A stretch of 64,000 nt of DNA from Coxiellaceae bacterium (GCA_047404195.1 JBDOIU010000002.1:3677-67676), one strand, 5' to 3'. Numbered from the stretch's first letter, positions 19,743 through 34,063 are shown. The notes: a model not told the origin generated them from the letters alone. A program made the numbers and translations.

Positions 19743-21377
19743 CTAAAAATCATTGCGACCGGATAGTTGGTGTCGCGTTTTATCAAGTTCTGTCACCCAA
19801 CCCTTGTCATCGATGATTGTTGGGCGCAGTAAAATGAATAGCTCTACTTTATCATAGCTATCTGAGCGGTGACTATTCCAGGCATGCCGCTCCATTCCAG
19901 GCACTTTGTTGCGTTGAAGCATACTTTTATCTGAAATCAGGCCACCGATGACAATAATTTGACCACTGCGGGCGCGTACAATTGTATCAGTTTCACGAAT
20001 GCTGGTTTTGGGGAGCTCGAGCGACTCATTATTGCCGGAAGTTGTGACAACGGGTGTAATAGAGCTGATAATCGGATGGATATGCAGGGTAATGTTGTCA
20101 TTCAGATCGACTTGCGGTGTGACATCAAGCGCTATACCTGAGAAGAATGACTGCAAATTGTTCGATACGGTAGGTGTAGTATTGAGGCTGCCTGACTCAA
20201 TAAAGGAGGTTGTAGTGCCCATAGAAAAGTATTGGTCATCGCCCACCTTGATGAGCGCCTTTTGGTTATTAAGCGTCGATACACGTGGGCTTGATAGCAG
20301 CGCAACCTTACCAACAGAAGACAGTGTGTCTAGAATGGCTGAGAAGCTTGTCGTGCTGGTAGTACTAGAGGTTTTGTTGTAGCCAGCAGCAGAGCTACTT
20401 GAGTTATTTGACCAGTCAAAGTAGGGCAATCCAAGGCGGCGTAGTCCAAACTCTTGCTTTTGTGTCATATTCACTTCTATGAAGCGAGCATCAATAACAA
20501 CTTGCTTGGAGTTGATAGCATGTAGGGAGCGTAAATACGCTTCCACCAATTTTTGCTTCCTGCGGCTAGCGCGTACGACTACTAAACCGTTGGCTTTGTT
20601 GACGGTGACAGAGCGGCCGTGCATGCTTTTCTTGTTAGAGGCATCTTCTCCGTCTGGCCGAATAATGTTCTCAATTGCTGTGGTAATTTCTTGCCAATAA
20701 TCCTCAATACCAAACGTTGTTGTGATTTCGCTGCTGCTTGATGCCTCACTTGAGCTTGAAGAGCCTGTCGTGTTTGATGAGCTACTGCTGGTACTATCAT
20801 TATCACGAGAATGCTGTAAGTCATTGATATTCATACTGCTTTTTCCGGAGCGAGTCATTGATAGCCAGTCTATAGTATAAATGCGTGTGAGCAGACGTTC
20901 TTGCATAACTTTGAAGCCAAAGTCCTTGTTCTCAATGCGAAAGCCGTAACTGTCAGTGAGTGCGTGCAGTACTTCGGGCAAGGTGATTTGTTTCAAATTA
21001 AGGGTGATTACCCCGGTGATATCTGGTGAAACCACCATATTGACGTTGTCTAAGCTGGCTAAATAAGAAAAGAATTGTTTGGCGGGCATTTTATTCACAC
21101 TGAGATTAAAGCGGCGCCAGTGGTGTTGTTTGGTTTGAGTTGGGGATGCAGACAGCGCCTGAGAGACAACCTCAGGCAATGAGGCAGTGACTTGGTTTGC
21201 TAACTTAGCATCATGGGTTGCGGCGGCCAATGTGATGTTTTTCGCGTCTTTGATGATGTCAGCGTGTCTTTGAGACATTTCTGTGCCATTACACGCTTGC
21301 AGCGATAACAGCGCGCAAACTGTGCAGTGGGTAAGCAATGTGCGAAATAATGTGGGCATTGACGGGGTCCTTTCCAT
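19743..21377 (-). CDS. mshL: secretin lipoprotein, MshL-like
   Basis: Lipobox LSLQAC. C-terminal secretin-domain pattern (LLSSPRVSTLNNQKALIKVG; SGQIIVIGGLI; VPGM; ILLRPTII). Carries Ser-rich low-complexity inserts (STSSSSSNTTGSSSSSEASSSSE; NNSSSSAAGYNKTSSTTSTTS). Confidence 0.85.
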   Translation of the reverse strand: MERTPSMPTLFRTLLTHCTVCALLSLQACNGTEMSQRHADIIKDAKNITLAAATHDAKLANQVTASLPEVVSQALSASPTQTKQHHWRRFNLSVNKMPAKQFFSYLASLDNVNMVVSPDITGVITLNLKQITLPEVLHALTDSYGFRIENKDFGFKVMQERLLTRIYTIDWLSMTRSGKSSMNINDLQHSRDNDSTSSSSSNTTGSSSSSEASSSSEITTTFGIEDYWQEITTAIENIIRPDGEDASNKKSMHGRSVTVNKANGLVVVRASRRKQKLVEAYLRSLHAINSKQVVIDARFIEVNMTQKQEFGLRRLGLPYFDWSNNSSSSAAGYNKTSSTTSTTSFSAILDTLSSVGKVALLSSPRVSTLNNQKALIKVGDDQYFSMGTTTSFIESGSLNTTPTVSNNLQSFFSGIALDVTPQVDLNDNITLHIHPIISSITPVVTTSGNNESLELPKTSIRETDTIVRARSGQIIVIGGLISDKSMLQRNKVPGMERHAWNSHRSDSYDKVELFILLRPTIIDDKGWVTELDKTRHQLSGRNDF

Positions 21378-21386: not shown

Positions 21387-21842
21387 TCATTTTAGCGAAA
21401 TAGTGTGCTGTTTAAAACCTGAAATATGTAATGTGACTCTATTTTGACCGTCCTCAAGCACAACTGTATGGGGCGTGATCTCAATAACCTCTAATAAACC
21501 AACATAGTCACCTTTCCGGACCTTTTTTTTGCCGATCACTGCCCAGTATTCGTCATCAACTTGAATAATCATGGTTAAGAGTTGGGCGGAGGTTTCCCCA
21601 GGTTTATACGGGTCGCGCTGGTCTGGTGATATTTGGTTCAGTACTTTTTGCTCTAAGGGGGATAATATATTGTCGCTTGCCGGGTAGCTGCCAATTGTTT
21701 CAATGGTGTCAAACGGTCTTGCCGTTGGGTCAAAGTGCAGCGTATCTTCTGCTGATTTGTTTTGCTGGTTGGCAAAGGAGGCTGTTGAGAGCAAGCCAAA
21801 TATGATGATGTATAGCATTGGTCGCAGTGAGAGGCGCTTCAT
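21387..21842 (-). CDS. small secreted pilus-biogenesis protein in the MshK position
   Basis: Signal peptide MKRLSLRPMLYIIIFGLLSTASFA. 151 aa. 4-nt overlap with the upstream gene. The call is positional. Confidence 0.45.
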   Translation of the reverse strand: MKRLSLRPMLYIIIFGLLSTASFANQQNKSAEDTLHFDPTARPFDTIETIGSYPASDNILSPLEQKVLNQISPDQRDPYKPGETSAQLLTMIIQVDDEYWAVIGKKKVRKGDYVGLLEVIEITPHTVVLEDGQNRVTLHISGFKQHTISLK

Positions 21843-22474
21843 TTTGACGGCTCCTTAGCTTCGGTTGTGAAGTACTGGAACTTCATCAAAAGAGATGCTG
21901 TTGGAAACTGATTAACAGAGATTTCTGTTTTATTGAGCAAGATGGCGCGATGTTGTTTTAGGAAGTCTTGCATGAATGATAATAGTTGACGATATTGGCC
22001 CATTACTTTGAGCGTGTAATCATGCATGGTGAACTGCTGGTTAGGTAGGCGAGTAACCCATGGCCGTGTTGGGTCTGAGGCTGGCTTAGCTTTTTTCTTT
22101 TTTGGCACTCGGCGGTTGCTGCGAATGCGGCGAATTCGTCTCTTTTTCTTAACAGGTTCTGCTTGGTTTAAGGCAACAAGGCGTACCCCTGGGTGTTGCT
22201 CAAGAAGGGCAATAATACTTAAATGGATACGAGCTTTTTCCAGCAGTAGTTGCTGCGTTAATAAAGATGTATTGCCAGCGTCTCTGGCATGTTGAATGAG
22301 TTGAATGGCATGGCGTTGTTTCGACAGTGAGTTGTTCAACTCATTTTGTTGGCTGGATAGCTGCATTGATGCAAATAAGCAGGAAAGCGCGAGTATCAGT
22401 AATAAGCATAATTGTATGATCTTCCCACTTAGGGGAATTTTTTTTCGTTGAAATAGTGATTGATAATGATTCAT
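21839..22474 (-). CDS. PilO-like bitopic protein in the MshJ position
   Basis: One N-terminal TM segment (IIQLCLLLILALSCLFA) followed by a coiled-coil-like segment. Unusual polybasic linker KKKRRIRRIRSNRRVPKKKKAKP. The call is positional and by size (211 aa). Confidence 0.45.
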   Translation of the reverse strand: MNHYQSLFQRKKIPLSGKIIQLCLLLILALSCLFASMQLSSQQNELNNSLSKQRHAIQLIQHARDAGNTSLLTQQLLLEKARIHLSIIALLEQHPGVRLVALNQAEPVKKKRRIRRIRSNRRVPKKKKAKPASDPTRPWVTRLPNQQFTMHDYTLKVMGQYRQLLSFMQDFLKQHRAILLNKTEISVNQFPTASLLMKFQYFTTEAKEPSK

Positions 22475-22478: not shown

Positions 22479-24011
22479 TTACCTTATTAAGATCGCGATT
22501 TGAAACGACAGAACTTTTGTGGTTATCAATTGGTCGCTGTCTTCACCTGCTTGCTCGTTTAAAAGTTGCTGCAGCTTTTGTTGACGGCGGCTGTAGGTAC
22601 GATCTAATCGTGTGAGCAGAGAGCGCTGTAAGCGTTTGATTTCATTGTTTCTGCGTTGTTTTTTCTTGCCTTGGCTGATTGTTTGGCCTGCTTGGTACGA
22701 TTTATTAGCAAATGTTTTCAGTGATACTTCTCTGGCGCCAGGGGCTTTCTTGAGCCATTTAATATAAGCAAGTATAAACTTAATATTGCGTGACTCCCCC
22801 TCCAGTTGCATTTTTTTTCGATCGACACTGATTTTTGTCAGCCACAGGCCAGGGAAGTTTTGACTGCTCAGCCATAGGAGCAGCTTGGTATGTGTGTGTT
22901 GCTGTTTTAAGAACTTTTGACTGAGAATACCAATAACTTTCTGTTGAGTATGTTTTGAGTCTAATGAATTGAGCATGGTAGTTCGTGAAGCCCTGCTTGC
23001 TTTGATTTTCTGTTGAAGAGAGCCAATCTCAATGGTTTTGAAGGTGCACAATGCAAGCAAAGCTGCTGCTATAGCTGTTGTTGTAGCGCATGACCAATGT
23101 AGTGTTCTAAAGCAATTTTGGCGTGTAAAGGTTGTTTTTTCAGCTAGTAGCAGCTCACCATGAGTTGTTTGCTGTTGTGAGCCAGTTGCAGCCAATGCGC
23201 ACCAAATATGATGGGGTTGTGGGTCAGCCTTTTCCTGTGCTTTCTGGTTGAGCGCATTGACTTGACATTGATTTGGCGTTATCGCCGTGGCATCCAGCAG
23301 TAACTGCTGCCATGGTTGAGCCAGATTGTGTTCAGTGCAGAGAATTGTAAATTGTGCCTGAGCTAAAATTTGTTGATACTGCTGACATATTTGTAGTACA
23401 GCACCACGTTGTAGCGGGTGTAGCACGTTGCTGTCTAAAGTTTCTCGAGGCAGGCCATGAATACCAATGATTTTATTTGCATGACAGACAACAATGCGCG
23501 GCATGAAATCGTCTAGTACGATGAAAAAGCTGGCATCAATTTCCTCCATGTGTATCAGTTGTGGGAGCACACCTTCTGCAAATTGAATATTTGAAATAGA
23601 TGATGGAAGCTGTGGGTTGAGCTGAGAAATTTGTGTATTGATGTCTGCCTGTATTGCTAGGCATACTGTTATATGGCACTCGTTGTCTGTCTCATGGATG
23701 GAGTAGAGGTAAAAGCATGTTTCTAGAGGTTGATCGATTAAATCAAGGAGTTGCATATCGATATGATCTTGCAGAACGCGCTTACTGAGGCCTGTCGGTG
23801 CCTTGATACTGAGAATTTGGTATTGTTCTGGTGCTAAAACCAGTGTTATAGCTGTTTTTTCAGGCAGTGCGGTTACTGGCTGACCACAATCTACATAACC
23901 CATTGAAAATTCATTGTTTTTCTTCGGTTGTGCCCAATAAAGCGCATTATTACGCAGCATGATATAGGCTCGTTTCGGGCGTTTTCTGCGCCATTTGAAA
24001 AGGTTGTGCAT
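22479..24011 (-). CDS. PilM/PilN-like fusion protein in the MshI position
   Basis: First gene of the minus-strand operon. Internal TM segment (TTTAIAAALLALCTF) splits a ~330-aa cytoplasmic part from a C-terminal part. I chose ATG 24011 (MHNLFKWRRKRPKR). The track's longer ORF to 24158 would run through the divergent promoter of 24201. Confidence 0.5.
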   Translation of the reverse strand: MHNLFKWRRKRPKRAYIMLRNNALYWAQPKKNNEFSMGYVDCGQPVTALPEKTAITLVLAPEQYQILSIKAPTGLSKRVLQDHIDMQLLDLIDQPLETCFYLYSIHETDNECHITVCLAIQADINTQISQLNPQLPSSISNIQFAEGVLPQLIHMEEIDASFFIVLDDFMPRIVVCHANKIIGIHGLPRETLDSNVLHPLQRGAVLQICQQYQQILAQAQFTILCTEHNLAQPWQQLLLDATAITPNQCQVNALNQKAQEKADPQPHHIWCALAATGSQQQTTHGELLLAEKTTFTRQNCFRTLHWSCATTTAIAAALLALCTFKTIEIGSLQQKIKASRASRTTMLNSLDSKHTQQKVIGILSQKFLKQQHTHTKLLLWLSSQNFPGLWLTKISVDRKKMQLEGESRNIKFILAYIKWLKKAPGAREVSLKTFANKSYQAGQTISQGKKKQRRNNEIKRLQRSLLTRLDRTYSRRQQKLQQLLNEQAGEDSDQLITTKVLSFQIAILIR

Positions 24012-24133
24012 GGTTAAGCTCAGCAAAAAACGATGATAACTCATAACATTATGGCATATTGACATAAAAAGAACCAATATTGCACACCTTTGCTTCCTTT
24101 GCAATGCATTTGTGTGGAAATAATGAACACATC

Positions 24134-24143
24134 TGTCTATAAT
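24134..24143 (+). promoter_or_regulatory. conserved TGTCTATAAT -10 block upstream of array gene A1
   Basis: tgtctataat at 24134-24143. TGGAAA lies 17 nt upstream (24115-24120). 57 nt to the ATG. Confidence 0.5.
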
Positions 24144-24200: not shown

Positions 24201-24941
24201 ATGAATAAAAAGAAGTTTTTTTTGCCGATTTTAGCGGCAAGTTCGATGTTTTTCGCAGGCGTTTCGCTTGCAGAAGATACAAAAACTGAAGTCGATCATA
24301 CGGCGCAGTGCATTAATGATGCTTTGAATGTCTTGGGTACAAGTCATACAGGGCAATTTGAAAACTACAGACGTTCGTTCTCGTCTGAATATATAGAGGC
24401 TGGTGCGTTCTTCACATTTGATAAGGCGGAAGGTGTCTCACTGGGCGCGTCAGATAGTGATGAAGCGGTTAAGGGTCTGGTCGGGATTTACGCCTTTATT
24501 GAGGGTACTGTGACAATTCCTGATGGTTCGTCTGATGTTTCTGGTAAAGAAGTTGCGGTTGTGTCAGCTTTTGCAGGCTCAAGCTGTGGTGCCTTCTCTT
24601 ATAGCGCAATTTACTGTGTGCTATCAGAAAACGCCATACCATTTGATGTCAATGCGTCAGCATCAGGCCTGAACTTTCAGACGATGGGCAGGCAGTGCTA
24701 CATTTGCTCACAGCACCGGTCAACCATTTTGCAAGGATTTAGTTCTGGTGCAAATGTATCATTTCTAGCGTTGTCAGGCACTGTTGTATCAGTGCCACAA
24801 ATCTCATCAACCACAACCAATGACTATTTTACAAAAGCGCAGGTCTCAGATGTGCCAAACTACTTTAGTTTAGCAGTGAACCCTGATGTATGTGCTGCGA
24901 TGGATGGCGCAAGTATCTCGTTGTTGAACGTTGAGGGATAA
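24201..24941 (+). CDS. array family A member A1 (divergent): secreted Cys-rich protein
   Basis: Signal peptide MNKKKFFLPILAASSMFFAGVSLA. Family Cys pattern AQCINDA ... SSCGAFSYSAIYCVL ... GRQCYICS ... DVCAA. Confidence 0.75.
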   Translation: MNKKKFFLPILAASSMFFAGVSLAEDTKTEVDHTAQCINDALNVLGTSHTGQFENYRRSFSSEYIEAGAFFTFDKAEGVSLGASDSDEAVKGLVGIYAFIEGTVTIPDGSSDVSGKEVAVVSAFAGSSCGAFSYSAIYCVLSENAIPFDVNASASGLNFQTMGRQCYICSQHRSTILQGFSSGANVSFLALSGTVVSVPQISSTTTNDYFTKAQVSDVPNYFSLAVNPDVCAAMDGASISLLNVEG

Positions 24942-24982
24942 TGAGGTTACTGGTTAATCGATTATAAGGTTATTTAATCGTG

Positions 24983-25008
24983 AAAAGGCAGCTGAAGCTG
25001 CCTTTTTT
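24983..25008 (+). terminator. rho-independent terminator after A1
   Basis: ggcagc-tgaa-gctgcc hairpin (24987-25002) followed by a T6 run. Confidence 0.75.
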
Positions 25009-25072
25009 GCATTCTGGGTGTGTGGTTGACTAAAATAAAAGTGAGTCCTTAATGTTGGTAGGGAGAGGTAAT

Positions 25073-25645
25073 ATGAAGATCATTCGAGCTGTCAGTGGTA
25101 TTGGTCTATGCTGCGTGTGTCTTTCTGGCATGGCTTTAGTCGCTGATGCACAGGATCGTGTATTGATGCAGTCCTGTACCGGTGCATTGATAGATCATAC
25201 CATCAACTATTACAGTAAGATCATTGCCGGTGCAACGCAAAATGTGCCCGTCGATAGTGTTACCTTCACCACGGCGACTGCTGCACCCTTTAAAAAAGAT
25301 AGCGCTGTGACATGTGAGCGGGTTGCCATTGACGATGCAACGTATCAGTACCGTTGCTCAGGTACTTTTGGTCAGCCTTGTGGTTTTGTGAGTAACCGTC
25401 ATTTCTTTTGTGATTTTTTGAATCCATCTGCCAGCAATGCATCGCTGGGTTATTTTGCGGCGGGCTCACCTGGAGCGACAACAAGCAATGCTTTGCCTGA
25501 TACAATACATTGTCAGGTATGCATTCCGTGGCAAGCAGGTACACCTCAATCAACCAAAGATGAGGCAGCTAAGATTTTTCAGCATCATGAGCAAAATGTA
25601 TCAGTTGTGACAGTTGATGATGCTTCGGCGGCAGTGTGTTCATAG
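25073..25645 (+). CDS. array family A member A2 (divergent)
   Basis: ATG 25073 after GGGAGAGG. Signal peptide MKIIRAVSGIGLCCVCLSGMALVADA. Pattern QSCTGAL ... PCGFVSNRHFFCDF ... HCQVC ... AAVCS. Confidence 0.7.
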   Translation: MKIIRAVSGIGLCCVCLSGMALVADAQDRVLMQSCTGALIDHTINYYSKIIAGATQNVPVDSVTFTTATAAPFKKDSAVTCERVAIDDATYQYRCSGTFGQPCGFVSNRHFFCDFLNPSASNASLGYFAAGSPGATTSNALPDTIHCQVCIPWQAGTPQSTKDEAAKIFQHHEQNVSVVTVDDASAAVCS

Positions 25646-25655
25646 GGGGAGGAAA

Positions 25656-26330
25656 ATGAGACAATTTTTGATTACAGCCATAACATGTGCCGTGACCATC
25701 ACCAGCCCATCGGTGCTGGCTAACCGCTACGAGCAAATTAAAGATGAATCATTGGCATGTTTAAGGAATGCTTTTGCGTTGCTGCAACCCATTCAAGTCA
25801 GCCAGCTTGATCAGTTTAAGGCCAGAGTGCAGCGTATTGCGCTGACAGGTGGCAGCCAGGTTCGCGGTATTTCACAGGTCAGTGATGTTGACCAGGCCAG
25901 CAAAGTATATGGTTATCATTACGGATTTTTGAACCCAACAGGCAGTCAGGCGGGCCAGGTGCAGTATATAACACGTGCATTTCTAGGTTCTGGTTGTGGT
26001 GTTTTCACCAATGCGGCGCTGATTTGTCAAATGTCTAATCAGGGCGAGGTGATTGATTTGGCTCAACCGGGAGGTTTCAAGCAGTTTAATTTTGGTGGTA
26101 TGGGTTTTACCTGTCAACTCTGTTCAGGGGTGGTTGGTTTATTCCCTTGTGTTGATGGGCATTGCAGCATTAAAAGTACGGATATGCGGCCACCCAGCAT
26201 TGCGTCTGGGGTCAGTGCTGATCAGTTCGCACAGCGAAATGCTGAGCCACCAGTTGGTGTAGGAATGACAAAAAATGACCACTGTGGCGACCTGCTTGAA
26301 GAAATAAGCTACGTGTATTCAGGTGGTTAG
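25656..26330 (+). CDS. array family A member A3 (divergent)
   Basis: ATG 25656 after GGGGGAGG, 10 nt after the A2 stop, so likely co-transcribed. Signal peptide ...TSPSVLA. Pattern LACLRNA ... GSGCGVFTNAALICQM ... FTCQLCSG ... HCGD. Confidence 0.7.
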   Translation: MRQFLITAITCAVTITSPSVLANRYEQIKDESLACLRNAFALLQPIQVSQLDQFKARVQRIALTGGSQVRGISQVSDVDQASKVYGYHYGFLNPTGSQAGQVQYITRAFLGSGCGVFTNAALICQMSNQGEVIDLAQPGGFKQFNFGGMGFTCQLCSGVVGLFPCVDGHCSIKSTDMRPPSIASGVSADQFAQRNAEPPVGVGMTKNDHCGDLLEEISYVYSGG

Positions 26331-26370
26331 AAATTAGTCCCCACCTTTCCTGGAAATTTGAGATTGTCCT

Positions 26371-26380
26371 TGTCTATATT
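26371..26380 (+). promoter_or_regulatory. conserved TGTCTATATT -10 block upstream of A4
   Basis: tgtctatatt at 26371-26380. TGGAAA lies 18 nt upstream (26351-26356). Confidence 0.45.
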
Positions 26381-26434
26381 TCGTAAGCGGCCACTGATGG
26401 CTGAGTTTGTTGGCTCATACTAAGGAGAGAAGTC

Positions 26435-27103
26435 ATGAATAAAAAAATACAACAATTATTGGTGCTAGCTACTGCATCGAGTGTTGTTCTTGCTGTAAGT
26501 ATTGGTTTTGCTAACCCAATTTCTAATGCAAAACAATGCCTCAATCAAGCTGCCAGAATTGCAAATGCTAACATTGCTGGTTTGAGTACCATCGTGGCTG
26601 ATGCAGTGACTCCTAGAGCGCTTAAGTTTAGCCAGAATAACTTAAATGGTTGGGACGGAACATCATTAGATGCAAAGGGTATCTATCATTCATCCATCGG
26701 TTGGTCACGAGAAGAAAAAGGTAAATATAAGTTTTATAACGTTGTTTATATGGGTAAAGCATGCGGTGTTTTATCAACATCAAGGCTAGCGTGTCGCCTA
26801 CAGTTGGGGTCAGGCGACCTAACATCACAGACTAACTTAGACGGTAAGTTAAAGCAAACACTGGGGATGGAGTGTACTGTTTGTCGTGGTGCAAGATACG
26901 ACAGTAGTTCAAGGTATGACGTATACGGTGTCCCAGGTGCTATGCGTGCTTCGGCGTTGAGAAGCGATCTGAATATTGCTCGCAACTTTTCAGTTGGTGC
27001 TGTTAAGATAGTCGGGTTTGAGGATGCAGAGAGTGGTGCTTGTCCAAGTACACCAGATTTGAATGGAGCAGATTTATACAGTTATTATGAGCCTGCAAGG
27101 TAG
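26435..27103 (+). CDS. array family A member A4 (core type)
   Basis: Signal peptide ...AVSIGFA|NP. Motifs AKQCLNQAA, LNGWDG..DAKGIYHSS.GW, YMGKACGVLSTSRLACRLQ, GMECTVCRG, GVPGAMRASALRSDL, FEDAESGAC. Confidence 0.85.
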   Translation: MNKKIQQLLVLATASSVVLAVSIGFANPISNAKQCLNQAARIANANIAGLSTIVADAVTPRALKFSQNNLNGWDGTSLDAKGIYHSSIGWSREEKGKYKFYNVVYMGKACGVLSTSRLACRLQLGSGDLTSQTNLDGKLKQTLGMECTVCRGARYDSSSRYDVYGVPGAMRASALRSDLNIARNFSVGAVKIVGFEDAESGACPSTPDLNGADLYSYYEPAR

Positions 27104-27135
27104 TGTCATCATTGTAAGATACTACATTAAAAAAA

Positions 27136-27158
27136 GCGGCAAATTTGCCGCTTTTTTT
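27136..27158 (+). terminator. rho-independent terminator after A4
   Basis: Perfect palindrome gcggcaaatttgccgc (27136-27151) followed by T7 and preceded by an A-run, so possibly bidirectional. Confidence 0.8.
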
Positions 27159-27551
27159 ATGATACTTGATCACAGTGCTTTCAATTTAGCAGCGTGTTTC
27201 GGTAAGCGTTGTTTGGTTCCAGTGGCTCATTGTGTCAGCATTGTTTTTAGAAAAAAATTAAGTTTGAAGACATTTTCTTTGAAGTTCCCATAAAGATACT
27301 TGTTGATTTCAGCGTTTGCTTGGGCGGTGTGGATTAAGAGCAATGATTTTTATACATAGAAGGACAGTTAACATGTGTTCAGTGATCGCTTGGGATAGAT
27401 TGTGTTATTTCTTACGGTGCCAAATATAGATTAGAAGATAATATTTTATTCTAGATTCAATAATGTATTCGATATAATTCATTATTTTACAGTGATTTAT
27501 GTGGTTGGTTATCTTTTAATGGGTATGTGATAGAGAAAACATTAACCAAGT

Positions 27552-27561
27552 TGTCTATAAT
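27552..27561 (+). promoter_or_regulatory. conserved TGTCTATAAT block upstream of A5
   Basis: tgtctataat at 27552-27561. 65 nt to the ATG. Confidence 0.5.
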
Positions 27562-27612
27562 AAAGGTATGCGGAGTTATTTTCGTATTTTGTTTTAATAG
27601 ATAGATCTTCTA

Positions 27613-27622
27613 GGGGGGGGGG
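27613..27622 (+). repeat. G10 homopolymer forming the Shine-Dalgarno region of A5
   Basis: ta-GGGGGGGGGG-tgat-ATG. The run occupies 27613-27622 and the ATG is at 27627. Paralogs have GGGGG or GGAGG at the same place. Confidence 0.9.
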
Positions 27623-27626
27623 TGAT

Positions 27627-28259
27627 ATGAATAAACTTGTATTATCTATGATTGGAGCAAGCGCTATTTGTGCTGTCAGTGCTGGAATTGCTGGGCCGAT
27701 TGCGGATGCTAAAAAATGTTTGTCTCAGGCTGCCGATGTTGCAAAGGAAAATGTAGTGAGTGTTGGTCAGATACTGGCTGATGCAGTTAGCGTATCAGCG
27801 CTCAAGTCTGGTCAGTTAAAGCTAAATGGTTGGGATGGCTCAAGCTCTGATGCTAAAGGTATTTACCACACGTCTCACGGCTGGCACACCAGTCGAGGGG
27901 CGGTAACCTATTATGATTTAGTTTATATGGGCCGTGGATGTGGTATACTGTCAAAGTCAAGGTTAGCTTGCAAACTGCAGATTAAAGGCCATGATCTCTA
28001 TAAAAATACCAACCTGGATCATGAGCTCAAGCAGTCTATTGGTCTGGAATGCACTGTGTGCCGTGGTGTTGAATATACATCAGATGGCGATATCTTTGGT
28101 GTTCCAAAAGCAATGAGAGCGTCAGCACTTAAAAGCGATCTTGGGATTGCAAAAAATTTCTCTACTGGGGTGGTAAAAATTACAACTTTCGAAGATGAGA
28201 GTGAAGGTAATTGTGGTAGTAGTAGAGGTGTCAGTGGCCCAATGCTAACAAATCTTTAA
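27627..28259 (+). CDS. array family A member A5 (core type)
   Basis: Signal peptide ...SAGIA|GP. Motifs KKCLSQAA, LNGWDGSSSDAKGIYHTSHGW, YMGRGCGILSKSRLACKLQ, GLECTVCRG, GVPKAMRASALKSDLGIAKNFS, FEDESEGNC. Confidence 0.85.
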   Translation: MNKLVLSMIGASAICAVSAGIAGPIADAKKCLSQAADVAKENVVSVGQILADAVSVSALKSGQLKLNGWDGSSSDAKGIYHTSHGWHTSRGAVTYYDLVYMGRGCGILSKSRLACKLQIKGHDLYKNTNLDHELKQSIGLECTVCRGVEYTSDGDIFGVPKAMRASALKSDLGIAKNFSTGVVKITTFEDESEGNCGSSRGVSGPMLTNL

Positions 28260-28282
28260 TATTTTTTTTGCGGTGAGAAAAA

Positions 28283-28304
28283 GCGGCGTGTAACGCCGTT
28301 TTTT
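28283..28304 (+). terminator. rho-independent terminator after A5
   Basis: gcggcg-tgtaa-cgccg hairpin followed by T6. Confidence 0.7.
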
Positions 28305-28410
28305 CATTGTGATCCAAAAAAATGTTAGAGAAAATTATCTGAGCGCCTTCAGTGTTTTGGCAGACTTTGCTCTGTAATGGACGCGTTTGAGAAAAAATAT
28401 TGCCCTAGAT

Positions 28411-28420
28411 TGTCTATACT
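28411..28420 (+). promoter_or_regulatory. conserved TGTCTATACT block upstream of A6
   Basis: tgtctatact at 28411-28420. The downstream 5' UTR (tatgcggagttgatttcgtatctt) closely matches the A5 5' UTR (tatgcggagttattttcgtatttt). Confidence 0.45.
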
Positions 28421-28473
28421 ATGATTATGCGGAGTTGATTTCGTATCTTTACTGTTACCATCTAGGAGGACGT

Positions 28474-29106
28474 ATGAATAAATTAATATTAACTTTGATC
28501 GGGTCAAGCGTTGTTTTGGCTTCAAGCGCTGGGTTTGCTGGCCCAATAACAGACGCTAAGAAATGCTTGAATCAGGCGGCAGGTGTTGCGAGTGCTAATG
28601 TGAGTGCGGCTGGTAAGATACTGCGTGATTCTATGGCAATGGGCTCACTGAAGAGTGGGCGTCTTGACTTAAACGGTTGGGATGGCACCCGGGATGATGC
28701 AAAGGGTGTTTATCACTCCTCCTATGGTTGGGGTGGTGATCCACACAGGTTCTATAGTTTGGTTTATATGGGCAATGGTTGTGGTATTCTCTCAAAATCA
28801 AGGCTGGCATGTAAGCTTCAAATTGGAAAGTACGCAGCGAGAAAGGATAGTATTTTAAACGCAAAGTTACCGCAGACGGTTGGGTTAGACTGTACGGTAT
28901 GTCGTGGTGTTGAATATACAAGCAGCGGGGACATATTCGGTGTTCAAGCTTCTATGCGAGCATCAGCATTAAGCACTGATTTGGCAATTGCGCAAAAGTT
29001 TGGAAATGGTGTTGTTAAGATAAGCGCAGTTGAAAATGAAAACGGCAATCAGTGCGCTAATAGTGCTCATGTAGAAGGTGTGGGGTTAGGTAACTTGGTT
29101 GATTAG
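28474..29106 (+). CDS. array family A member A6 (core type)
   Basis: ATG 28474 after TAGGAGGA. The track's TTG 28387 would read through the promoter block. Signal peptide ...SAGFA|GP. Motifs KKCLNQAA, LNGWDGTRDDAKGVYHSSYGW, YMGNGCGILSKSRLACKLQ, GLDCTVCRG. Confidence 0.85.
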   Translation: MNKLILTLIGSSVVLASSAGFAGPITDAKKCLNQAAGVASANVSAAGKILRDSMAMGSLKSGRLDLNGWDGTRDDAKGVYHSSYGWGGDPHRFYSLVYMGNGCGILSKSRLACKLQIGKYAARKDSILNAKLPQTVGLDCTVCRGVEYTSSGDIFGVQASMRASALSTDLAIAQKFGNGVVKISAVENENGNQCANSAHVEGVGLGNLVD

Positions 29107-29145
29107 TGGTACTCATAACCATACCTATTTTGATTAAGGTGGGTG

Positions 29146-29174
29146 AATGCGGCGTTTTAACGCCGCATTTTTTG
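29146..29174 (+). terminator. rho-independent terminator after A6
   Basis: aatgcggcg-ttttaa-cgccgcatt hairpin followed by a T-run. Confidence 0.8.
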
Positions 29175-29272
29175 AGTTAAGCTATTGATGATGGTTCAAT
29201 TTCAATGACTTAGTTGAAAGGTAACATATTTATGAGAAAATTGCTAAATTACTGGGCAATTATGGCTGCGAA

Positions 29273-29282
29273 GGTCTATAAT
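29273..29282 (+). promoter_or_regulatory. conserved GGTCTATAAT block upstream of A7
   Basis: GGGCAA-N17-TATAAT, the same arrangement as upstream of A8. The ~76-nt 5' UTR is conserved with that of A8. Confidence 0.5.
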
Positions 29283-29358
29283 GGGAATAAGTGAGATGGA
29301 ATTCACTTTATAGAGTTCTGGAAAATGAGTAAATAGTCCTTTTTTTGGGGGTGTTATA

Positions 29359-30042
29359 ATGAGTAATAATTTTAAAAAACTACCATTAGTCGCATTGACT
29401 TCAGGTTTAGTCATGGCATCTGGATCTGGTTTTGCTGATCCAATTTCAGATGGTAAGCAATGCCTAAATCAAGCAGCCGCAATTGCAGATGCAAATGTTA
29501 CCGGTTTAGGTGCTATCGTCGCTGATGCTGTTGATGCTGTTGATGCTGTTGATGCTGTGGTGCTTCGAGACAGTCAAAGCAGTCTGAATGGTTGGGATGG
29601 GTCACCGGGCGATGCAAAAGGTATATATCATTCCTCGACTGGTTGGACATATGCGAGCAAAGTTGGGTATAGGTTCTTCAATATAGTCTATATGGGTAAA
29701 GACTGTGGTATTTTATCTAAATCTAGATTGGTATGTAAGTTACAGATAGGTGGAACAGACCTAACTACAAGCATAAGCAATTTAAATAATAAATTAAAGC
29801 AAACATTAGGCATGGAGTGTAGTGTTTGTCGTGGCGCTACATTTGCTAGAGTCGGTTTAGATGATACATATGGTGTGCCAGCCGCTATGCGGGCCTCAGC
29901 ATTAAAAGATGACCTGGGTATTGCAAAAAACTTTTCGGTCGGAGCTGTAAAGATAGTCAATTTTGAAGATGAGGATAATGGTATGTGCCCAAGTTCATCT
30001 GGTATAGAAGGAGGGGAATTACGTGGACTCTATAGGTTCTAA
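29359..30042 (+). CDS. array family A member A7 (core type, with DAV repeat)
   Basis: Signal peptide ...GSGFA|DP. Motifs GKQCLNQAA, LNGWDGSPGDAKGIYHSSTGW, YMGKDCGILSKSRLVCKLQ, GMECSVCRG, GVPAAMRASALKDDLGIAKNFSVGAVKI, FEDEDNGMC. Confidence 0.85.
   Translation: MSNNFKKLPLVALTSGLVMASGSGFADPISDGKQCLNQAAAIADANVTGLGAIVADAVDAVDAVDAVVLRDSQSSLNGWDGSPGDAKGIYHSSTGWTYASKVGYRFFNIVYMGKDCGILSKSRLVCKLQIGGTDLTTSISNLNNKLKQTLGMECSVCRGATFARVGLDDTYGVPAAMRASALKDDLGIAKNFSVGAVKIVNFEDEDNGMCPSSSGIEGGELRGLYRF
29524..29559 (+). repeat. 4 x 9-bp in-frame tandem repeat (gatgctgtt) encoding (DAV)4 in A7
   Basis: gatgctgtt x3 plus gatgctgtg, read directly. Paralogs have a single ADAV/ADAA at this position. Confidence 0.95.
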
Positions 30043-30082
30043 TGCTATCTTTTTTCGACAGTGGAGCATTTAATTCGTGGGG

Positions 30083-30105
30083 AGCGGCACTTGTGCCGCT
30101 TTTTT
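30083..30105 (+). terminator. rho-independent terminator after A7
   Basis: agcggca-cttg-tgccgct hairpin followed by T6. Confidence 0.8.
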
Positions 30106-30237
30106 AGTGTTGCATGATATCGTTTACAGTTATCTATGTTTACCCTCCGGTGAATCAAATTTAATTTCAATAACTTAGGTGATCTTTAACTAAAGACCAA
30201 TAAAATCGGGCAAAATGTGGGCAAATTTAGCTTGGAG

Positions 30238-30247
30238 CGTCTATAAT
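30238..30247 (+). promoter_or_regulatory. conserved CGTCTATAAT block upstream of A8
   Basis: GGGCAA-N17-TATAAT. 77 nt to the ATG. Confidence 0.5.
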
Positions 30248-30324
30248 GGGAGTAAGTGGAATGGAATTTACTGGATAAAGTTATGGATAGTCAACTGAAT
30301 AATCCTTATTTTGGGGGTGTTGTT

Positions 30325-30966
30325 ATGAGTAATTCTTTTAAAAAGTTACCTTTATTTGCATTGACTTCTAGCTTGATACTGGTAGCTGGTTCTGGTTTTG
30401 CAAATCCAATTTCAGATGCTAAGCAGTGCCTTAATCAAGCTGCTAAGATTGCAAGTGCGAATGTAGCCAGTGCTGGTACAATTTTAGCTGATGCTGCCGA
30501 TGTTAGAGTGCTTAGAAGTGAAAAGTTAGCTTTGAATGGCTGGAGTGGAATGCGAGAAGATGCCAAGGGAATCTACTTCTCTTCAACAGGTTGGTCAGGC
30601 GGTACTAGTAGTAATTTCTATAACGTTGTTTACATGGGCAAAGATTGTGGTATTTTGTCGAAATCAAGGTTGGCATGTCGGTTACAGCTTGGCAGCCAAG
30701 AGGTAACTAGGATTACTAATCTGGACCATAAGCTGAAGCAAACAGTGGGTATGAAGTGCAGTGTTTGTCGAGGTGTTGAGCATGTTAGAGGTGAAATGTA
30801 TGATCGTTTTGGTGTGCCAGCAGCAATGCGGGCATCTGCATTGAAAGATGACTTAGGTATTGCTAAAAACTTTTCAGTTGGGGCTGTTAAGATAACAAGG
30901 TTTGAAGATGAAGATCACGACAAATGTGCTAGCTCACCAGGTTTACACGGGGGACTGTTACGCTGA
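30325..30966 (+). CDS. array family A member A8 (core type)
   Basis: ATG 30325 after TTTTGGGGGTGTTGTT, the same context as A7. Signal peptide ...GSGFA|NP. Motifs AKQCLNQAA, LNGWSGMREDAKGIYFSSTGW, YMGKDCGILSKSRLACRLQ, GMKCSVCRG, FEDEDHDKC. Confidence 0.85.
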   Translation: MSNSFKKLPLFALTSSLILVAGSGFANPISDAKQCLNQAAKIASANVASAGTILADAADVRVLRSEKLALNGWSGMREDAKGIYFSSTGWSGGTSSNFYNVVYMGKDCGILSKSRLACRLQLGSQEVTRITNLDHKLKQTVGMKCSVCRGVEHVRGEMYDRFGVPAAMRASALKDDLGIAKNFSVGAVKITRFEDEDHDKCASSPGLHGGLLR

Positions 30967-31023
30967 TATGTGGCGCTGCAGAGGTTTTTGTATTGTCGAT
31001 ATTGGTCTATTCAATTTTGAGAG

Positions 31024-31047
31024 AGCGACGCTTGCGTCGCTTTTTTT
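31024..31047 (+). terminator. rho-independent terminator after A8
   Basis: agcgacg-cttg-cgtcgct hairpin followed by T7. Confidence 0.8.
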
Positions 31048-31169
31048 GTGGGCGGACAAATTTATCCTATACTATGTTTCAGATGACACACATTGCCTCT
31101 TTTTGAGGTGGTGTATTGATAGGATTCTTGCCTATAGTAAGCTCACCAGTGAACATTCAATGCTAACTA

Positions 31170-31179
31170 TGTCTATAAT
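31170..31179 (+). promoter_or_regulatory. conserved TGTCTATAAT block upstream of A9
   Basis: tgtctataat at 31170-31179. 81 nt to ATG 31261. Confidence 0.5.
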
Positions 31180-31260
31180 TGCTGTATAGTGTGCGATCAT
31201 AGATTTTTTTGTTCACTAAAGGATGTTTACCATGGCTGTAATGCTGATTTAGGGGGTTAT

Positions 31261-31920
31261 ATGACAAGATTCCGGCTCAAGTGTGTTACTTATGCATTGA
31301 CATCATGCTTCGCCTTGACGACAGGGACCTGTTGTGCCGATTCTATAGCTGATGCGAAGAGTTGTCTCAATCAGGCTACAGGTATCGCAAGCGCTACTGT
31401 TGCGCATGTCGCTGACATTTTGAGTGGTGCAATGCTGATGGGTTCACTTAAAAAGGGTGAATTGAATTTAAATGGTTGGAGTAAGCTTGTTGCGCATGCA
31501 AAGGGTGTTTATTATACAACTTATGGTTGGCACGCTGGCAGCAGTGGTCGTCATAAGTTTTTTAATATGGTTTATTTGGGAAGTAGTTGCGGAATTTTAT
31601 CAAACTCACGACTGGCTTGCAGGCTTCAAGTGGCAGGTGTGGATGCAGCTGACGTGGTGACTCTTGATAATAAACTTCAGCAGTCCATTGGCTTTGAGTG
31701 TACAGTTTGTCGGGGGGTTGTATTGGGGATCCAGCATAATCAATTGGTTGAATACTACGGTGTGCCAACTGCCATGAGAGCTTCGGCACTGACGAGTGAC
31801 TTAGATGTCGCGCAGCAGTTCTCATCTGGATCGGTTAAAATAGGCACTTTTGAAGATGAGCTGAATGGCGATTGCGCTAGCAGTTCTGGTGTCAGCGGAA
31901 CTGAATTGAGTAATCTTTAG
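31261..31920 (+). CDS. array family A member A9 (core type)
   Basis: ATG 31261 after TAGGGGGTTAT. Signal peptide ...TGTCCA|DS. Motifs AKSCLNQAT, LNGWSKLVAHAKGVYYTTYGW, YLGSSCGILSNSRLACRLQ, GFECTVCRG, GVPTAMRASALTSDL, FEDELNGDC. Confidence 0.85.
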   Translation: MTRFRLKCVTYALTSCFALTTGTCCADSIADAKSCLNQATGIASATVAHVADILSGAMLMGSLKKGELNLNGWSKLVAHAKGVYYTTYGWHAGSSGRHKFFNMVYLGSSCGILSNSRLACRLQVAGVDAADVVTLDNKLQQSIGFECTVCRGVVLGIQHNQLVEYYGVPTAMRASALTSDLDVAQQFSSGSVKIGTFEDELNGDCASSSGVSGTELSNL

Positions 31921-32027
31921 GGTGATACCTGTATTTTGATACTAAAGATTTGATTTGGCTTCTGTAAGTGGTTGATATTAGCAATATGGTGATTTTTTGT
32001 TCCGAGGGGTGAAAAACTGAACAGTAT

Positions 32028-32037
32028 TGTCTATAAT
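32028..32037 (+). promoter_or_regulatory. conserved TGTCTATAAT block upstream of A10
   Basis: tgtctataat at 32028-32037, with TGAAAA 16 nt upstream. Confidence 0.5.
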
Positions 32038-32126
32038 AGTAATATGAGCAACTGTGCTAATATCAGGGATAAGACCCTCCAAAATAATTTTTTTAAGGCT
32101 AGGATTGCTCGTTGGGAAGGTGGATA

Positions 32127-32789
32127 GTGTCAATCAATAAGAAAAGAGCGGCTGTATTTTCGTTGGCAAGTCTAGTCAGTGTTGTGATTACCTGTGTGAC
32201 CTATGCTGATGCACTACAAAATGCACGCGCATGTCTCTACTCCGCAACACAGTCAGCCAGTCAGACGATTGCTTCGGTCCCCGAGATCTTATCACTCAAT
32301 GCCTCTAGTAGCGAAATATCTGGTGGCCAGGCGACCCTGGGTAACTGGGATGAAACCACCTTGAGCACAGAAGTGGGTAGTGGCGCCATTGGTTATTATC
32401 ATCGTATATGGGGCTGGTCAGCAGCCGATACACATTTTTATGAAATTGCTTATTTCGGGAGGGGTTGCGGGATGTTGTCTTATTCCAAGATGGTATGCAA
32501 AGCGTATGTTGAAGACAGTATTTTTTCGCAGTCTAGCAACTTAGCACAATACACACGCCAGGGCTGGTCATTCCGCTGCTCTTTGTGTCGTGGCAAGGCG
32601 CTGAGTAATGTTGGGTCTGGTATTACTGAGCAGTCTGTCAATGAGTCCCAATTGGCCTATTCTGTACTACAAACAGATAAGGAGACGTTGAAGCAGCAGT
32701 CTGCCGGCTCGCGCTCAGTAATCTTAACGGGGCTGGTTGATGATGAAGCAAAGTGTTCACTATCATACCAAGAGATAGAGAGGGATTGA
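32127..32789 (+). CDS. array family A member A10 (divergent)
   Basis: GTG 32127 after GGGAAGGTGGA (TTG 32112 is an alternative). Signal peptide ...CVTYA|DA. Motifs ARACLYSAT, LGNWDE, YHRIWGW, YFGRGCGMLSYSKMVCKAY, WSFRCSLCRG, DDEAKC. Confidence 0.75.
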   Translation: MSINKKRAAVFSLASLVSVVITCVTYADALQNARACLYSATQSASQTIASVPEILSLNASSSEISGGQATLGNWDETTLSTEVGSGAIGYYHRIWGWSAADTHFYEIAYFGRGCGMLSYSKMVCKAYVEDSIFSQSSNLAQYTRQGWSFRCSLCRGKALSNVGSGITEQSVNESQLAYSVLQTDKETLKQQSAGSRSVILTGLVDDEAKCSLSYQEIERD

Positions 32790-32794
32790 GGCTC

Positions 32795-33454
32795 ATGTAT
32801 AGGATATTAACTTTATTTTTGGTGAGTACACTCATAATTCCAGTCTTTGCAGCCAGTATTGACCGAATTAAAGAGCGCACCCTCAACTGTACTCAGCATG
32901 CAGTAAAGTTGGTTGAAAGTCGCTTTAGTCTATTGCGTTTTTTCTTGGCCAAAGATGTCACATACCCCCCTCCTAGTAAGCTTATTATTCAGAATCACCA
33001 CATTACGCTTTCTGGAGCACTGACAGATCCAGAGTCTCTGCAGGCAGGAGCTCGCCGATTGTATGCGGATGAAGTGGGTAAGTTAGCCAGTGGTGAAGTA
33101 ATAATACGGGGATTTTTCGGTGCCAATTGTGGTGGGGTTAGCTGGTCTAGCTTGATCTGTGTATTAACGCACAATGGCGACATCATCGTTGATTACAGTG
33201 ATGCAACCGGCCTGACGTTACCCGGTTTCTCCGCGGTATGCTTTATTTGTCCTGATAGAAAGTTACGCATACCCTGCAGTCAATGCCAGGCTGAAGCAAC
33301 GACTACCACAACACCAAAGGCGCTCTATGATGTGGCTAATGCCATGTTGGTTGGCCAGGCGAGTAGCAGTGGCGTTGTGCATTTGATTAGCCCTGTTGGA
33401 ACAGATTTATGCTCAACATACGATACTGCACTGATTGTGCATGACTCGGCATAA
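32795..33454 (+). CDS. array family A member A11 (divergent)
   Basis: ATG 32795 lies 5 nt after the A10 stop. Signal peptide MYRILTLFLVSTLIIPVFA. Pattern LNCTQHA ... FFGANCGGVSWSSLICVL ... AVCFICPD ... DLCS. Confidence 0.7.
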   Translation: MYRILTLFLVSTLIIPVFAASIDRIKERTLNCTQHAVKLVESRFSLLRFFLAKDVTYPPPSKLIIQNHHITLSGALTDPESLQAGARRLYADEVGKLASGEVIIRGFFGANCGGVSWSSLICVLTHNGDIIVDYSDATGLTLPGFSAVCFICPDRKLRIPCSQCQAEATTTTTPKALYDVANAMLVGQASSSGVVHLISPVGTDLCSTYDTALIVHDSA

Positions 33455-33475
33455 ATCGTTGGTTGTGGGGGGCAT

Positions 33476-34063
33476 ATGTTAAAGAAAATCATTTTAAGTG
33501 CCGGATTACTATTGCTTGTTGACGTGGCCGCTGCTGCTAGTACACATGCTCTATTTTTCAAGCCAGCTGGTGCATGTATGCAACAAATTGGGTCAACCTT
33601 ATCATCCTTACAAAGTTCACTTGCGCTCGCTGCCAGTGGTGGTACAACGTTAACAGTTGATCCACAAACATTGCTGGGCCCATTGGCAGAAGTCAGTGTG
33701 AGCATGCAATTGGCGCAACCACCAACGACAGCATATGATTACTGGCAGGTTTCAGGCATGGTCAGTGATAAAGCGTGTGGTGTCATTACGAGGGCGAGCG
33801 TCACTTGTTATTTAATGGATACGTGCCTGAATCGGATAGGTCCAGATTCTACATATTCGTGTCATTCAGGTGGATGGACCGGCATGGATGAATTGACCAT
33901 TTTAACGTGCAATATCAAGCTACCCGTTGTGAATGCGACGACACTGGATGCACAGGATTTTTCAGCTATTTGCACGGCATTGAGCCCACATATGATTCAG
34001 GATAAGGTCTTGTTTGATGTGGTCAGTGCGGATGGCAGCCAGGAATGTGATATATTTTGGTGA
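33476..34063 (+). CDS. array family A member A12 (most divergent)
   Basis: ATG lies 21 nt after the A11 stop, preceded by GGGGGG. Signal peptide MLKKIILSAGLLLLVDVAAAAS. Pattern GACMQQ ... DKACGVITRASVTCYL ... LTCNI ... QECD. The CxxC is reduced to a single Cys. Confidence 0.6.
   Translation: MLKKIILSAGLLLLVDVAAAASTHALFFKPAGACMQQIGSTLSSLQSSLALAASGGTTLTVDPQTLLGPLAEVSVSMQLAQPPTTAYDYWQVSGMVSDKACGVITRASVTCYLMDTCLNRIGPDSTYSCHSGGWTGMDELTILTCNIKLPVVNATTLDAQDFSAICTALSPHMIQDKVLFDVVSADGSQECDIFW

Follow-up and report, generated by a model that had tools for sequence, protein, structure and literature searches.

A family of predicted Sec-exported, cysteine-rich proteins attached to a pilin-less MSHA-type gene set in an uncultured gammaproteobacterial lineage

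Introduction

What role could a long run of genes for small, cysteine-rich and apparently exported proteins have beside the assembly genes of a pilus, when the pilins themselves are missing? We addressed this question in a stretch of 64,000 nucleotides from a Coxiellaceae bacterium (GCA_047404195.1, JBDOIU010000002.1:3677-67676), hereafter the window, in which positions are counted from the first letter. The genes in question, A1-A12, are 12 consecutive open reading frames (ORFs) on the + strand at 24201-34063, encoding products of 190-246 aa. This layout had been proposed by a first-pass annotation made from the sequence alone, and our ORF calls confirmed it. Start codons were placed with the help of Shine-Dalgarno-like G-rich stretches 5-12 nt 5' of internal start codons, which led us to choose the shorter product for 7 of the 12 ORFs (table 1). 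We describe here a new protein family attached to a known type of machine, that of the mannose-sensitive haemagglutinin (MSHA) pilus, in an unusual configuration without pilins. We then weigh what the family might do there.

Results and discussion

The array adjoins an MSHA-type gene set without pilins

Directly 5' of A1, and divergent from it, nine genes on the - strand (14252-24014) correspond in order, sizes and domains to Vibrio cholerae mshI-J-K-L-M-N-E-G-F. The MSHA locus of V. cholerae comprises the assembly operon mshIJKLMNEGF and a second operon, mshB-Q, for the pilins (PMC4624765). The window has the nine genes of the former in mshI-F order and with similar sizes, including an MshL-type secretin (with Secretin_N_2), an ExeA-like MshM, an MshN with tetratricopeptide repeats (TPR), an MshE with an MshEN domain and an MshG resembling PilC/GspF. 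MSH loci never contain a prepilin peptidase, and the same is true of this one (PMC6668835). All the msh-like proteins score below the NCBIfam equivalog cut-offs; hence, the machine itself is divergent. The pilus or secretion machine that the first-pass annotation had placed beside the array is nonetheless real, as a nine-gene set of MSH type.

Neither the window nor any related locus contains the second operon of V. cholerae (pilins MshB/A/C/D/O plus MshP/Q). Instead, the array fills the position adjoining the assembly operon, and a cysteine-rich family with predicted Sec leaders stands in the place of the pilin operon. MSH systems have been described as compact, each in a single locus with its pilins included. 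We searched for class III signal peptides, i.e. short basic leaders that end in Gly, are cleaved before a hydrophobic segment and have Glu at +5 (PROSITE PS00409, Pfam N_methyl), in the six-frame translations of the window and of the related loci L001-L010 and L091-L095. Neither PS00409 nor a relaxed version of the pattern matched, while the positive control did, and Pfam scans gave no match to N_methyl. In the MSH model of Denise et al., mshA, mshE, mshG and mshL, as well as mshM, are mandatory, but mshA may be a loner elsewhere in the genome (PMC6668835). Here mshE, mshG, mshL and mshM occur together in one locus, and no prepilin that could be the major pilin MshA was found in the 64-kb window or in the related loci. 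With no class III signal peptide in any locus, it is the cysteine-rich family that sits at the position of the V. cholerae pilin operon.

The linkage is conserved across divergent lineages

The family adjoins an MSHA-type gene set in all lineages with enough flanking DNA (7/7), usually as two copies directly after mshK. In L007/L008, the order is cytidine deaminase, mshF-G-E-N-M-L (-), mshI-J-K-fam(206)-fam(231) (+) and gyrB, where fam denotes a family gene. The same layout is found in L091/L092/L093, with fam(208)-fam(223), and in L095, where the first family gene overlaps the stop codon of mshK by 4 nt. In L010 the genes mshL-M-N-E-G-I-J-K-fam-fam are all on one strand, while L005/L006 show mshK-fam-fam-gyrB. 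Finally, in L094, from a relative assembled from TARA metagenomes, mshI-J-K and the secretin are divergent from orthologues of A1 (65% identity), A2 (84%) and A3 (60%), and another contig of the TARA relative carries orthologues of A9 (C-terminus), A10, A11 and A12. Apart from the overlap in L095, mshK and the first family gene are separated by about 23-31 nt. The assembly operon of these relatives is split, unlike that of V. cholerae, into L-M-N-E-G(-F) and I-J-K-fam-fam.

This linkage holds across a GyrB divergence of about 30%, i.e. among lineages whose GyrB is about 70% identical to that of the window. It also outlasts rearrangement, namely an inversion of mshIJK between lineages, a co-linear arrangement in L010 and the insertion of acyltransferase genes in L091 and L095. 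In the window and in the TARA relative, mshI-J-K are on the same strand as mshL-F, as in Vibrio, while in the two-copy lineages they are with the family genes and divergent from mshL. The differing orientation implies that an inversion separates these lineages. In a neighbour-joining tree, the two-copy lineages have two paralogue types, both ancient, and the window copies form a radiation specific to their lineage. These patterns point to an ancestral state with two paralogues directly 3' of mshK, a pair that the window lineage would have enlarged to about twelve. A third copy was seen in L010 (11576-13721, in the metagenome-assembled genome GCA_024279495.1), truncated after about 75 residues and lying beside a RelB-family gene and an ISL3 transposase.

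The array is followed by gyrB and then by housekeeping genes (rsmD-like, M16 peptidases, ftsYEX, cyo), and the whole region is syntenic between the window, L007/L008 and L091 (cytidine deaminase, msh, family, gyrB, rsmD-like, M16 peptidases, ftsYEX). Hence, the linkage could partly reflect vertical inheritance: the family might comprise exported periplasmic, outer-surface or effector proteins functionally unrelated to msh, which merely share an inherited cdd-msh-gyrB synteny. A second, unrelated array of exported cysteine-rich proteins in the window (53691-56074) shows that there is a general tendency to amplify such genes. Yet, the family stays beside the msh genes despite the inversion of mshIJK, the co-linearity of L010 and the acyltransferase insertions in L091 and L095. 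It follows mshK with operonic spacing and, where context existed, was found nowhere without msh genes (7/7). We therefore consider it unlikely that mere synteny accounts for the association.

Ten copies, and probably an eleventh, are paralogues with a shared cysteine scaffold

The first-pass annotation had described twelve paralogues, of which the six central ones were said to be closely related. The latter was borne out: A4-A9 share 45-63% identity (BLASTP E 1e-61 to 1e-97). The identity of A10 to this group is about 27% (E ~1e-20), and hidden Markov models (HMMs) built with one copy left out retrieved A1, A3, A10 and A11 (E values in table 1). On these sequence comparisons, paralogy is solid for ten genes (A1 and A3-A11). 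A2 is a probable eleventh member, since its leave-one-out score is marginal while its alignment by hhalign extends over 110 colinear columns. Its orthologue in L094 is 84% identical by BLASTP and 79% by full-length alignment. A12 was not retrieved by the leave-one-out HMM and has in common with the others only a core of 17 residues, CG..S....C.L (hhalign E 0.014), so that its paralogy is unproven. No extra copies or pseudogene remnants of the family were found elsewhere in the 64-kb window.

The ordered cysteine scaffold reported previously is real. Cys35, Cys110, Cys120 and Cys150 (A4 numbering) are invariant in all 12 proteins, Cys147 is nearly so, and a C-terminal Cys is also present. The predicted mature proteins have either 6 or 8 cysteines each, which fits three or four disulfides. 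On this common scaffold, the predicted isoelectric point (pI) of the mature proteins varies from 4.2 to 9.1.

All 12 products have leaders with the features of Sec signals cleaved by signal peptidase I, in line with the earlier description: an n-region with 1-3 Lys/Arg, a hydrophobic core (11-residue Kyte-Doolittle maximum of 1.6-3.0 in A1-A12) and small residues at -3/-1. The Ala at -1 is invariant in the alignment of the 12 window members and stays so when two TARA relatives are added; among 21 members from several lineages it is Ala in 20 and Gly in one. The hydrophobic stretch before this residue is the least conserved part of the proteins, and conservation starts after it. There is no other hydrophobic segment in the sequences. 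We built AlphaFold2 (AF2) models of A4 (alignment of 14 sequences) and of the distant member P0017 (21 sequences), which reached a predicted local distance difference test (pLDDT) of 77-78 and a predicted template modelling score (pTM) of 0.77, with pLDDT below 50 in the leader. A variable leader, a nearly invariant -1 residue and low leader pLDDT together suggest a cleaved Sec signal rather than the retained N-terminal helix of a pilin. The family proteins are thus predicted to be Sec-exported, with removal of the leader by signal peptidase I.

The two models agree with each other. Both show a disordered leader, an N-terminal helix of 24-29 residues with the first Cys, 5-6 beta-strands, a C-terminal helix and a final strand. 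Foldseek searches with both against the PDB, a check that had been suggested beforehand, gave no match with E below 0.27 and none that was significant, and there was no match in BFVD. The best PDB matches of the A4 model were the type IV pilins 1qve and 8tum (E 0.27-0.36, TM-score 0.23-0.38, root mean square deviation (rmsd) 7-13 Å, non-significant). Those of the P0017 model were the ring-building motifs of FliF/PrgK/EscJ (E at least 0.4, probability at most 0.11, non-significant), with no pilin among its top matches. An alpha/beta-roll head domain like that of pilins was hinted at by the A4 model and not by that of P0017. The two leads disagree, and we accepted neither.

Could an MSH-derived filament do without pilins, with the family in place of type IV pilins as the unit that is polymerised or extruded? 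The family takes up the site of the pilin operon, and none of the loci has a class III signal peptide. The A4 model resembles the globular domain of type IV pilins in its long N-terminal helix on an antiparallel beta-sheet and its disulfide-rich C-terminal part, and its two top Foldseek matches, 1qve and 8tum, are pilins. These matches, to truncated PAK-type pilins, are non-significant (for 1qve and 8tum E 0.27, TM-score 0.26-0.38, rmsd 7-13 Å) and were not reproduced with P0017. In contrast to type IV pilins, the family lacks the class III signal peptide, Glu5 and the conserved hydrophobic alpha1-N, the segment with which all known type IV filament machines extract and stack subunits. Its leader has instead a conserved signal peptidase I site. 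The mshA gene, moreover, may lie apart from the rest of the locus (PMC6668835), and we hold a replacement of the pilins to be very unlikely.

The family is rare and restricted to an uncultured clade

The lack of a recognisable family, also suggested by the first-pass annotation, stood up to searches of several libraries. Pfam-A scans returned nothing above threshold, the best match being DUF6196 with 15.7 bits for a cut-off of 25. There was no match in NCBIfam for the ten members scanned (A1-A7 and A10-A12), none in PHROGs, none with E below 1 in a sequence profile search of the PDB, and none by tblastn in plasmid and phage collections. When 1.84 billion representative proteins were searched exhaustively with HMMER, only 16 matched; six of these are the window's own, which leaves about 10 outside relatives, all metagenomic. 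The close ones (P0004, P0007, P0014 and P0022) come from TARA metagenome assemblies. The distant ones (P0013 and P0015-P0021; E 1e-17 to 6e-7) keep the leader, the helix Cys, the block AY(M/L/F)G..CG....K(L).C.LK, the CxxC and the C-terminal Cys. It was the exhaustive search that produced these distant members, as word-indexed protein searches gave few matches and missed known relatives.

No relative was found when the GTDB representative genomes were scanned with a profile of the central copies, and the family was present in none of 80 gammaproteobacterial gyrB loci (0/80). A scan of JGI metagenomes yielded a single locus, with the same cassette as L091 and on a contig of almost equal length. 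Among the GTDB representatives found, none has a GyrB more than 67% identical to that of the window; the identity is about 70% to the L007 and L091 lineages and 78% to L005. The source is a deep, uncultured gammaproteobacterial lineage, and our searches indicate that its small, apparently exported proteins belong to a lineage-restricted family not described before.

The expansion is old and under purifying selection

The synonymous divergence (dS, by NG86) was above 1.4 or not computable for all 15 pairs of central paralogues, including the closest one, A7/A8, and for the pairs of window and TARA orthologues. The ratio of non-synonymous to synonymous divergence (dN/dS), computed among A4-A9 as had been recommended, was 0.1-0.3 gene-wide between paralogues and about 0.1 between A10 orthologues; these ratios are rough because dS is saturated. 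Orthologues in the second species are 60-84% identical and represent A1-A3 and A9-A12. There was no trace of recent gene conversion or duplication, in that paralogues share no DNA segment above about 83% identity. Saturated dS, the absence of such segments and the orthologues at both ends indicate that the expansion is old and, at either end of the array, older than the divergence from the TARA species. The copies appear from these ratios to be held by purifying selection.

The earlier view of an old and still expanding family thus needs to be amended: the family is old, but even A7/A8 are saturated at synonymous sites and orthologues were already present in a second species, so that ongoing expansion is not supported. 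Nor is diversifying selection, also proposed at the time, given the gene-wide dN/dS of 0.1-0.3 and given that A2, the most aberrant copy, is 79-84% identical to its orthologue. The gene at position 4 of the L094 array (1-330, -) is only 27-29% identical to any window copy. Such a different paralogue at this position suggests some turnover, with array content differing between species though both ends are orthologous. The sole sign of recent length change within the array is in A7, where a 9-nt unit, GATGCTGTT, occurs about 4 times (29523-29558) and lengthens the end of the N-terminal helix by (DAV)n.

Most copies have predicted promoters and terminators of their own

A promoter-like -10 box, GTCTATAAT, lies upstream of A1 and recurs in identical form upstream of five other copies, with variants at A6 (GTCTATACT) and A4 (TGTCTATATT). 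The motif GTCTATAMT has 7 matches in the 64 kb, against 0.58 expected, and none of 100 shuffles reached 7. All 7 sites are 54-90 nt upstream of start codons of the family (A1 and A5-A10) and are consensus or near-consensus -10 boxes. Counting the TGTCTATATT of A4, eight copies have a private box. The box is common to copies whose proteins are at most 27% identical (A1 and A10) and is absent from related loci. Its persistence between divergent copies and its absence from relatives suggest a promoter or regulator site peculiar to this lineage, rather than a box that was simply duplicated along with the genes. We found no Rfam match to a riboswitch or leader RNA in the 5' untranslated regions of 54-90 nt. 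Terminator-like hairpins followed by T-runs were found after A1 and A4-A8. Together these elements suggest the transcription units A1, A2-A3, A4, A5, A6, A7, A8, A9 and A10-A11-A12. With most copies having a predicted promoter and terminator of their own, the array may be a repertoire of independently expressed variants, and the consensus-type boxes would fit abundant expression.

These units bear on another explanation, that the family is a periplasmic structural or assembly part of a divergent MSH-type machine, associated for example with the secretin or the alignment complex, and not its cargo. In four lineages, the first family gene starts at most 31 nt after mshK or before the end of its stop codon, as if it were co-translated with mshIJK. 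A pair of copies is conserved throughout the clade, and the top Foldseek matches of P0017, the FliF/PrgK/EscJ ring-building motifs, would suit such a part, although they are non-significant (E at least 0.4, probability at most 0.11). On the other side, an expansion to twelve diverged paralogues with pI of 4.2-9.1 is rare for components of this kind. In the window, most copies have a predicted consensus-type promoter and a terminator of their own, apart from mshIJK, and no fold match is significant. A role as machine part seems improbable to us.

A tentative model: cargo or surface partners of the machine

In all the related marine bacteria found, none of them cultured, the family adjoins a pilus-type export machine without pilins, and it is probably that machine's cargo or partner. 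We propose, tentatively and with a little less than even confidence, that the proteins, once exported by Sec and bonded by disulfides, are delivered to the MSH-type machine and serve as its cargo or surface partners, in the manner of TcpF and CofJ. The proteins would first be exported by Sec and lose their leader to signal peptidase I, as their N-termini suggest. They would then fold in the periplasm into a compact alpha/beta domain with three or four disulfides, consistent with the even cysteine counts and the AF2 models. Finally, the MshL secretin machine might take them outside the cell or to its surface, a step to which only the conserved gene linkage points. An ancient growth of the pair would have produced about twelve diverged paralogues of differing surface charge (pI 4.2-9.1), kept by purifying selection.

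There are partial precedents for such a system. TcpF, of the toxin-coregulated pilus (TCP) of V. cholerae, and CofJ, of colonization factor antigen III (CFA/III) of enterotoxigenic Escherichia coli (ETEC), are soluble and depend on Sec; their genes lie in type IVb pilus operons, and it is the pilus machine, not a secretion system of another kind, that exports them (PMC10120004, PMC9565799, PMC6048534). The family likewise appears soluble, has a predicted cleavable Sec leader and is encoded beside a pilus machine, on which we suggest its export may depend. TcpF and CofJ differ from it in being single-copy, in belonging to type IVb rather than MSH systems and in docking on a minor pilin, whereas the family has 2-12 copies and no pilin nearby.

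Type II secretion offers a second comparison. Its substrates can be encoded beside the gsp/pul cluster, e.g. pullulanase PulA, divergent from pulC-O. As predicted for the family, they are exported by Sec, fold in the periplasm and are encoded by, and often divergent from, a machine with a secretin, GspE and GspF. Known type II substrates are enzymes or toxins with recognisable domains. In contrast, the family has no recognisable domain, and its machine is of MSH type (secretin, MshM, MshN, MshEN), without GspC and without pseudopilins in cis. Type IVa pili are the common origin of the MSH and the type II secretion systems (PMC6668835).

Several points weigh against the proposal that the family is cargo. 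The weak spot of the model is that there is no pilin gene in any locus seen, so that pilins would have to be encoded elsewhere. TcpF and CofJ cannot do without a minor pilin as partner, nor type II secretion systems without pseudopilins. Passage through the secretin is suggested by neighbourhood alone, in a machine that is divergent, as all its genes are below the NCBIfam equivalog cut-offs. In the relatives, the family is co-operonic with mshIJK, which are low-abundance alignment genes, an arrangement that would suit a machine component too. Neither the PDB profile search nor Foldseek linked the family to TcpF, to CofJ or to a known substrate of type II secretion, be it by sequence or by fold. 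Pilins encoded elsewhere are allowed by the model of Denise et al., in which mshA may be a loner away from the locus (PMC6668835).

If the family is indeed cargo or a partner, it would provide a genetically simple system (about eleven genes, two of them for cargo in the relatives) to study how pilus machines select soluble substrates, as well as a new fold and family for the annotation of marine metagenomes. The 12 copies make a natural series of variants with very different surface charges on one scaffold. We know of no type IV filament machine described so far that acts on anything other than pilins with class III signal peptides. The clade keeps nine biogenesis genes while its pilin operon is replaced by an exported family of no known kind, a pairing that outlasts inversions and insertions. 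A bolder interpretation is that in this clade an MSHA-type machine has become devoted to exporting, or even assembling, disulfide-bonded proteins that Sec delivers, with no conventional pilins encoded in cis. We think this quite unlikely. If true, it would be a new functional class in the type IV filament superfamily, with the 12-gene array as a diversified repertoire of payloads or subunits. Should pilins be absent genome-wide, the pilin requirement of the superfamily would need rethinking.

Table 1. Features of the array and of the adjoining MSHA-type gene set (positions in the window).
Feature	Position	Strand	Remarks
A1, family member	24201..24941	+	246 aa, signal peptide 24 aa, 6 Cys; leave-one-out HMM E 4e-11; 65% orthologue in L094 (TARA relative)
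A2, probable divergent member	25073..25645	+	190 aa, 8 Cys in mature part; leave-one-out HMM 13 bits; hhalign E 5e-4 over 110 columns
A3, family member	25656..26330	+	224 aa; leave-one-out HMM E 1e-17; 60% orthologue in L094
A4, central-group member	26435..27103	+	222 aa; AF2 model pLDDT 77, pTM 0.77
A5, central-group member	27627..28259	+	210 aa
A6, central-group member	28474..29106	+	210 aa
A7, central-group member	29359..30042	+	227 aa; 9-nt x4 tandem repeat, (DAV)n, at 29523-29558
A8, central-group member	30325..30966	+	213 aa; nearest copy A7 (63%)
A9, central-group member	31261..31920	+	219 aa
A10, member	32127..32789	+	220 aa; ~27% identical to A4-A9; leave-one-out HMM E 2e-24; 73% orthologue in L001
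A11, member	32795..33454	+	219 aa, 8 Cys; leave-one-out HMM E 8e-9; 77% orthologue P0007
A12, exported-looking 8-Cys protein	33476..34063	+	195 aa; homology to family unproven (core CG..C motif only); 74% orthologue P0022 in L001
Promoter-like -10 box of A1	24135..24143	+	GTCTATAAT
Box of A4	26371-26380		variant TGTCTATATT
Box of A5	27553-27561		GTCTATAAT
Box of A6	28412-28420		variant GTCTATACT
Box of A7	29274-29282		GTCTATAAT
Box of A8	30239-30247		GTCTATAAT
Box of A9	31171-31179		GTCTATAAT
Box of A10	32029-32037		GTCTATAAT
Terminator-like hairpin and T-run after A1	24987..25008	+	
Similar terminator, A4	27134-27158		
Similar terminator, A5	28282-28304		
Similar terminator, A6	29146-29173		
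Similar terminator, A7	30083-30105		
Similar terminator, A8	31024-31047		
mshI-like	22479..24014	-	~511 aa, weak PilN domain (22.7 bits); aligned with L007/L010/L091 homologues; divergent from A1
mshJ-position gene	21839..22474	-	211 aa, N-terminal transmembrane segment; by position and size against V. cholerae mshI-F (PMC4624765)
mshK-position gene	21387..21842	-	151 aa, Sec leader, PTARP motif; directly before family genes in relatives
mshL-like secretin	19743..21377	-	Pfam Secretin 99.5 bits and Secretin_N_2; best NCBIfam model MshL, 179.6 bits (below cut-off of 250)
mshM-like AAA_22 ATPase (ExeA/GspA type)	18787..19737	-	AAA_22 95 bits
mshN-like TPR protein	17704..18783	-	by domain scan
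mshE-like assembly ATPase	16025..17707	-	T2SSE 325 bits and MshEN 39 bits; Walker A/B and CxxC..CxxC intact
mshG-like platform protein	14808..16028	-	T2SSF 37.6 bits
mshF-position gene	14252..14818	-	exported 188 aa protein, 4 conserved Cys, conserved in relatives

Other features of the window

The protein at the mshF position (14252-14818, -, in the window; 312-815 in L007; 124-633 in L091) has four invariant cysteines and an FPG motif and is specific to the msh cluster of this clade; its gene is missing in L095 and L010. We considered this protein as a hidden member of the family and rejected it (hhalign probability 1%). Within the array, the gap between A4 and A5 (27104-27626) is AT-rich and unusually long (523 nt), with no ORF, no remnant of the family and no Rfam match. 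An antisense ORF of 126 aa (33325-33705, -) runs across A11/A12 and is mirrored in L001 because the sense genes are conserved there; it is probably not a gene.

The second tandem array (53691-56074, +) consists of four paralogous genes with 34-44% identity to the first copy. They encode proteins of about 160 aa with Sec leaders and four invariant cysteines (VKFCPKNIFKPC ... C ... STCDG..KWHFR), for which there is no Pfam match. Three very large ORFs on the + strand, 22-2886 (954 aa), 3114-7076 (1320 aa) and 11356-14208 (950 aa), have no match in Pfam or NCBIfam, and the last of them directly adjoins the end of the msh operon. Finally, the ORF at 8982-10685 (+) encodes a fusion of 567 aa, with an N-terminal HAD-type hydrolase and a CofD (2-phospho-L-lactate transferase-like) domain.

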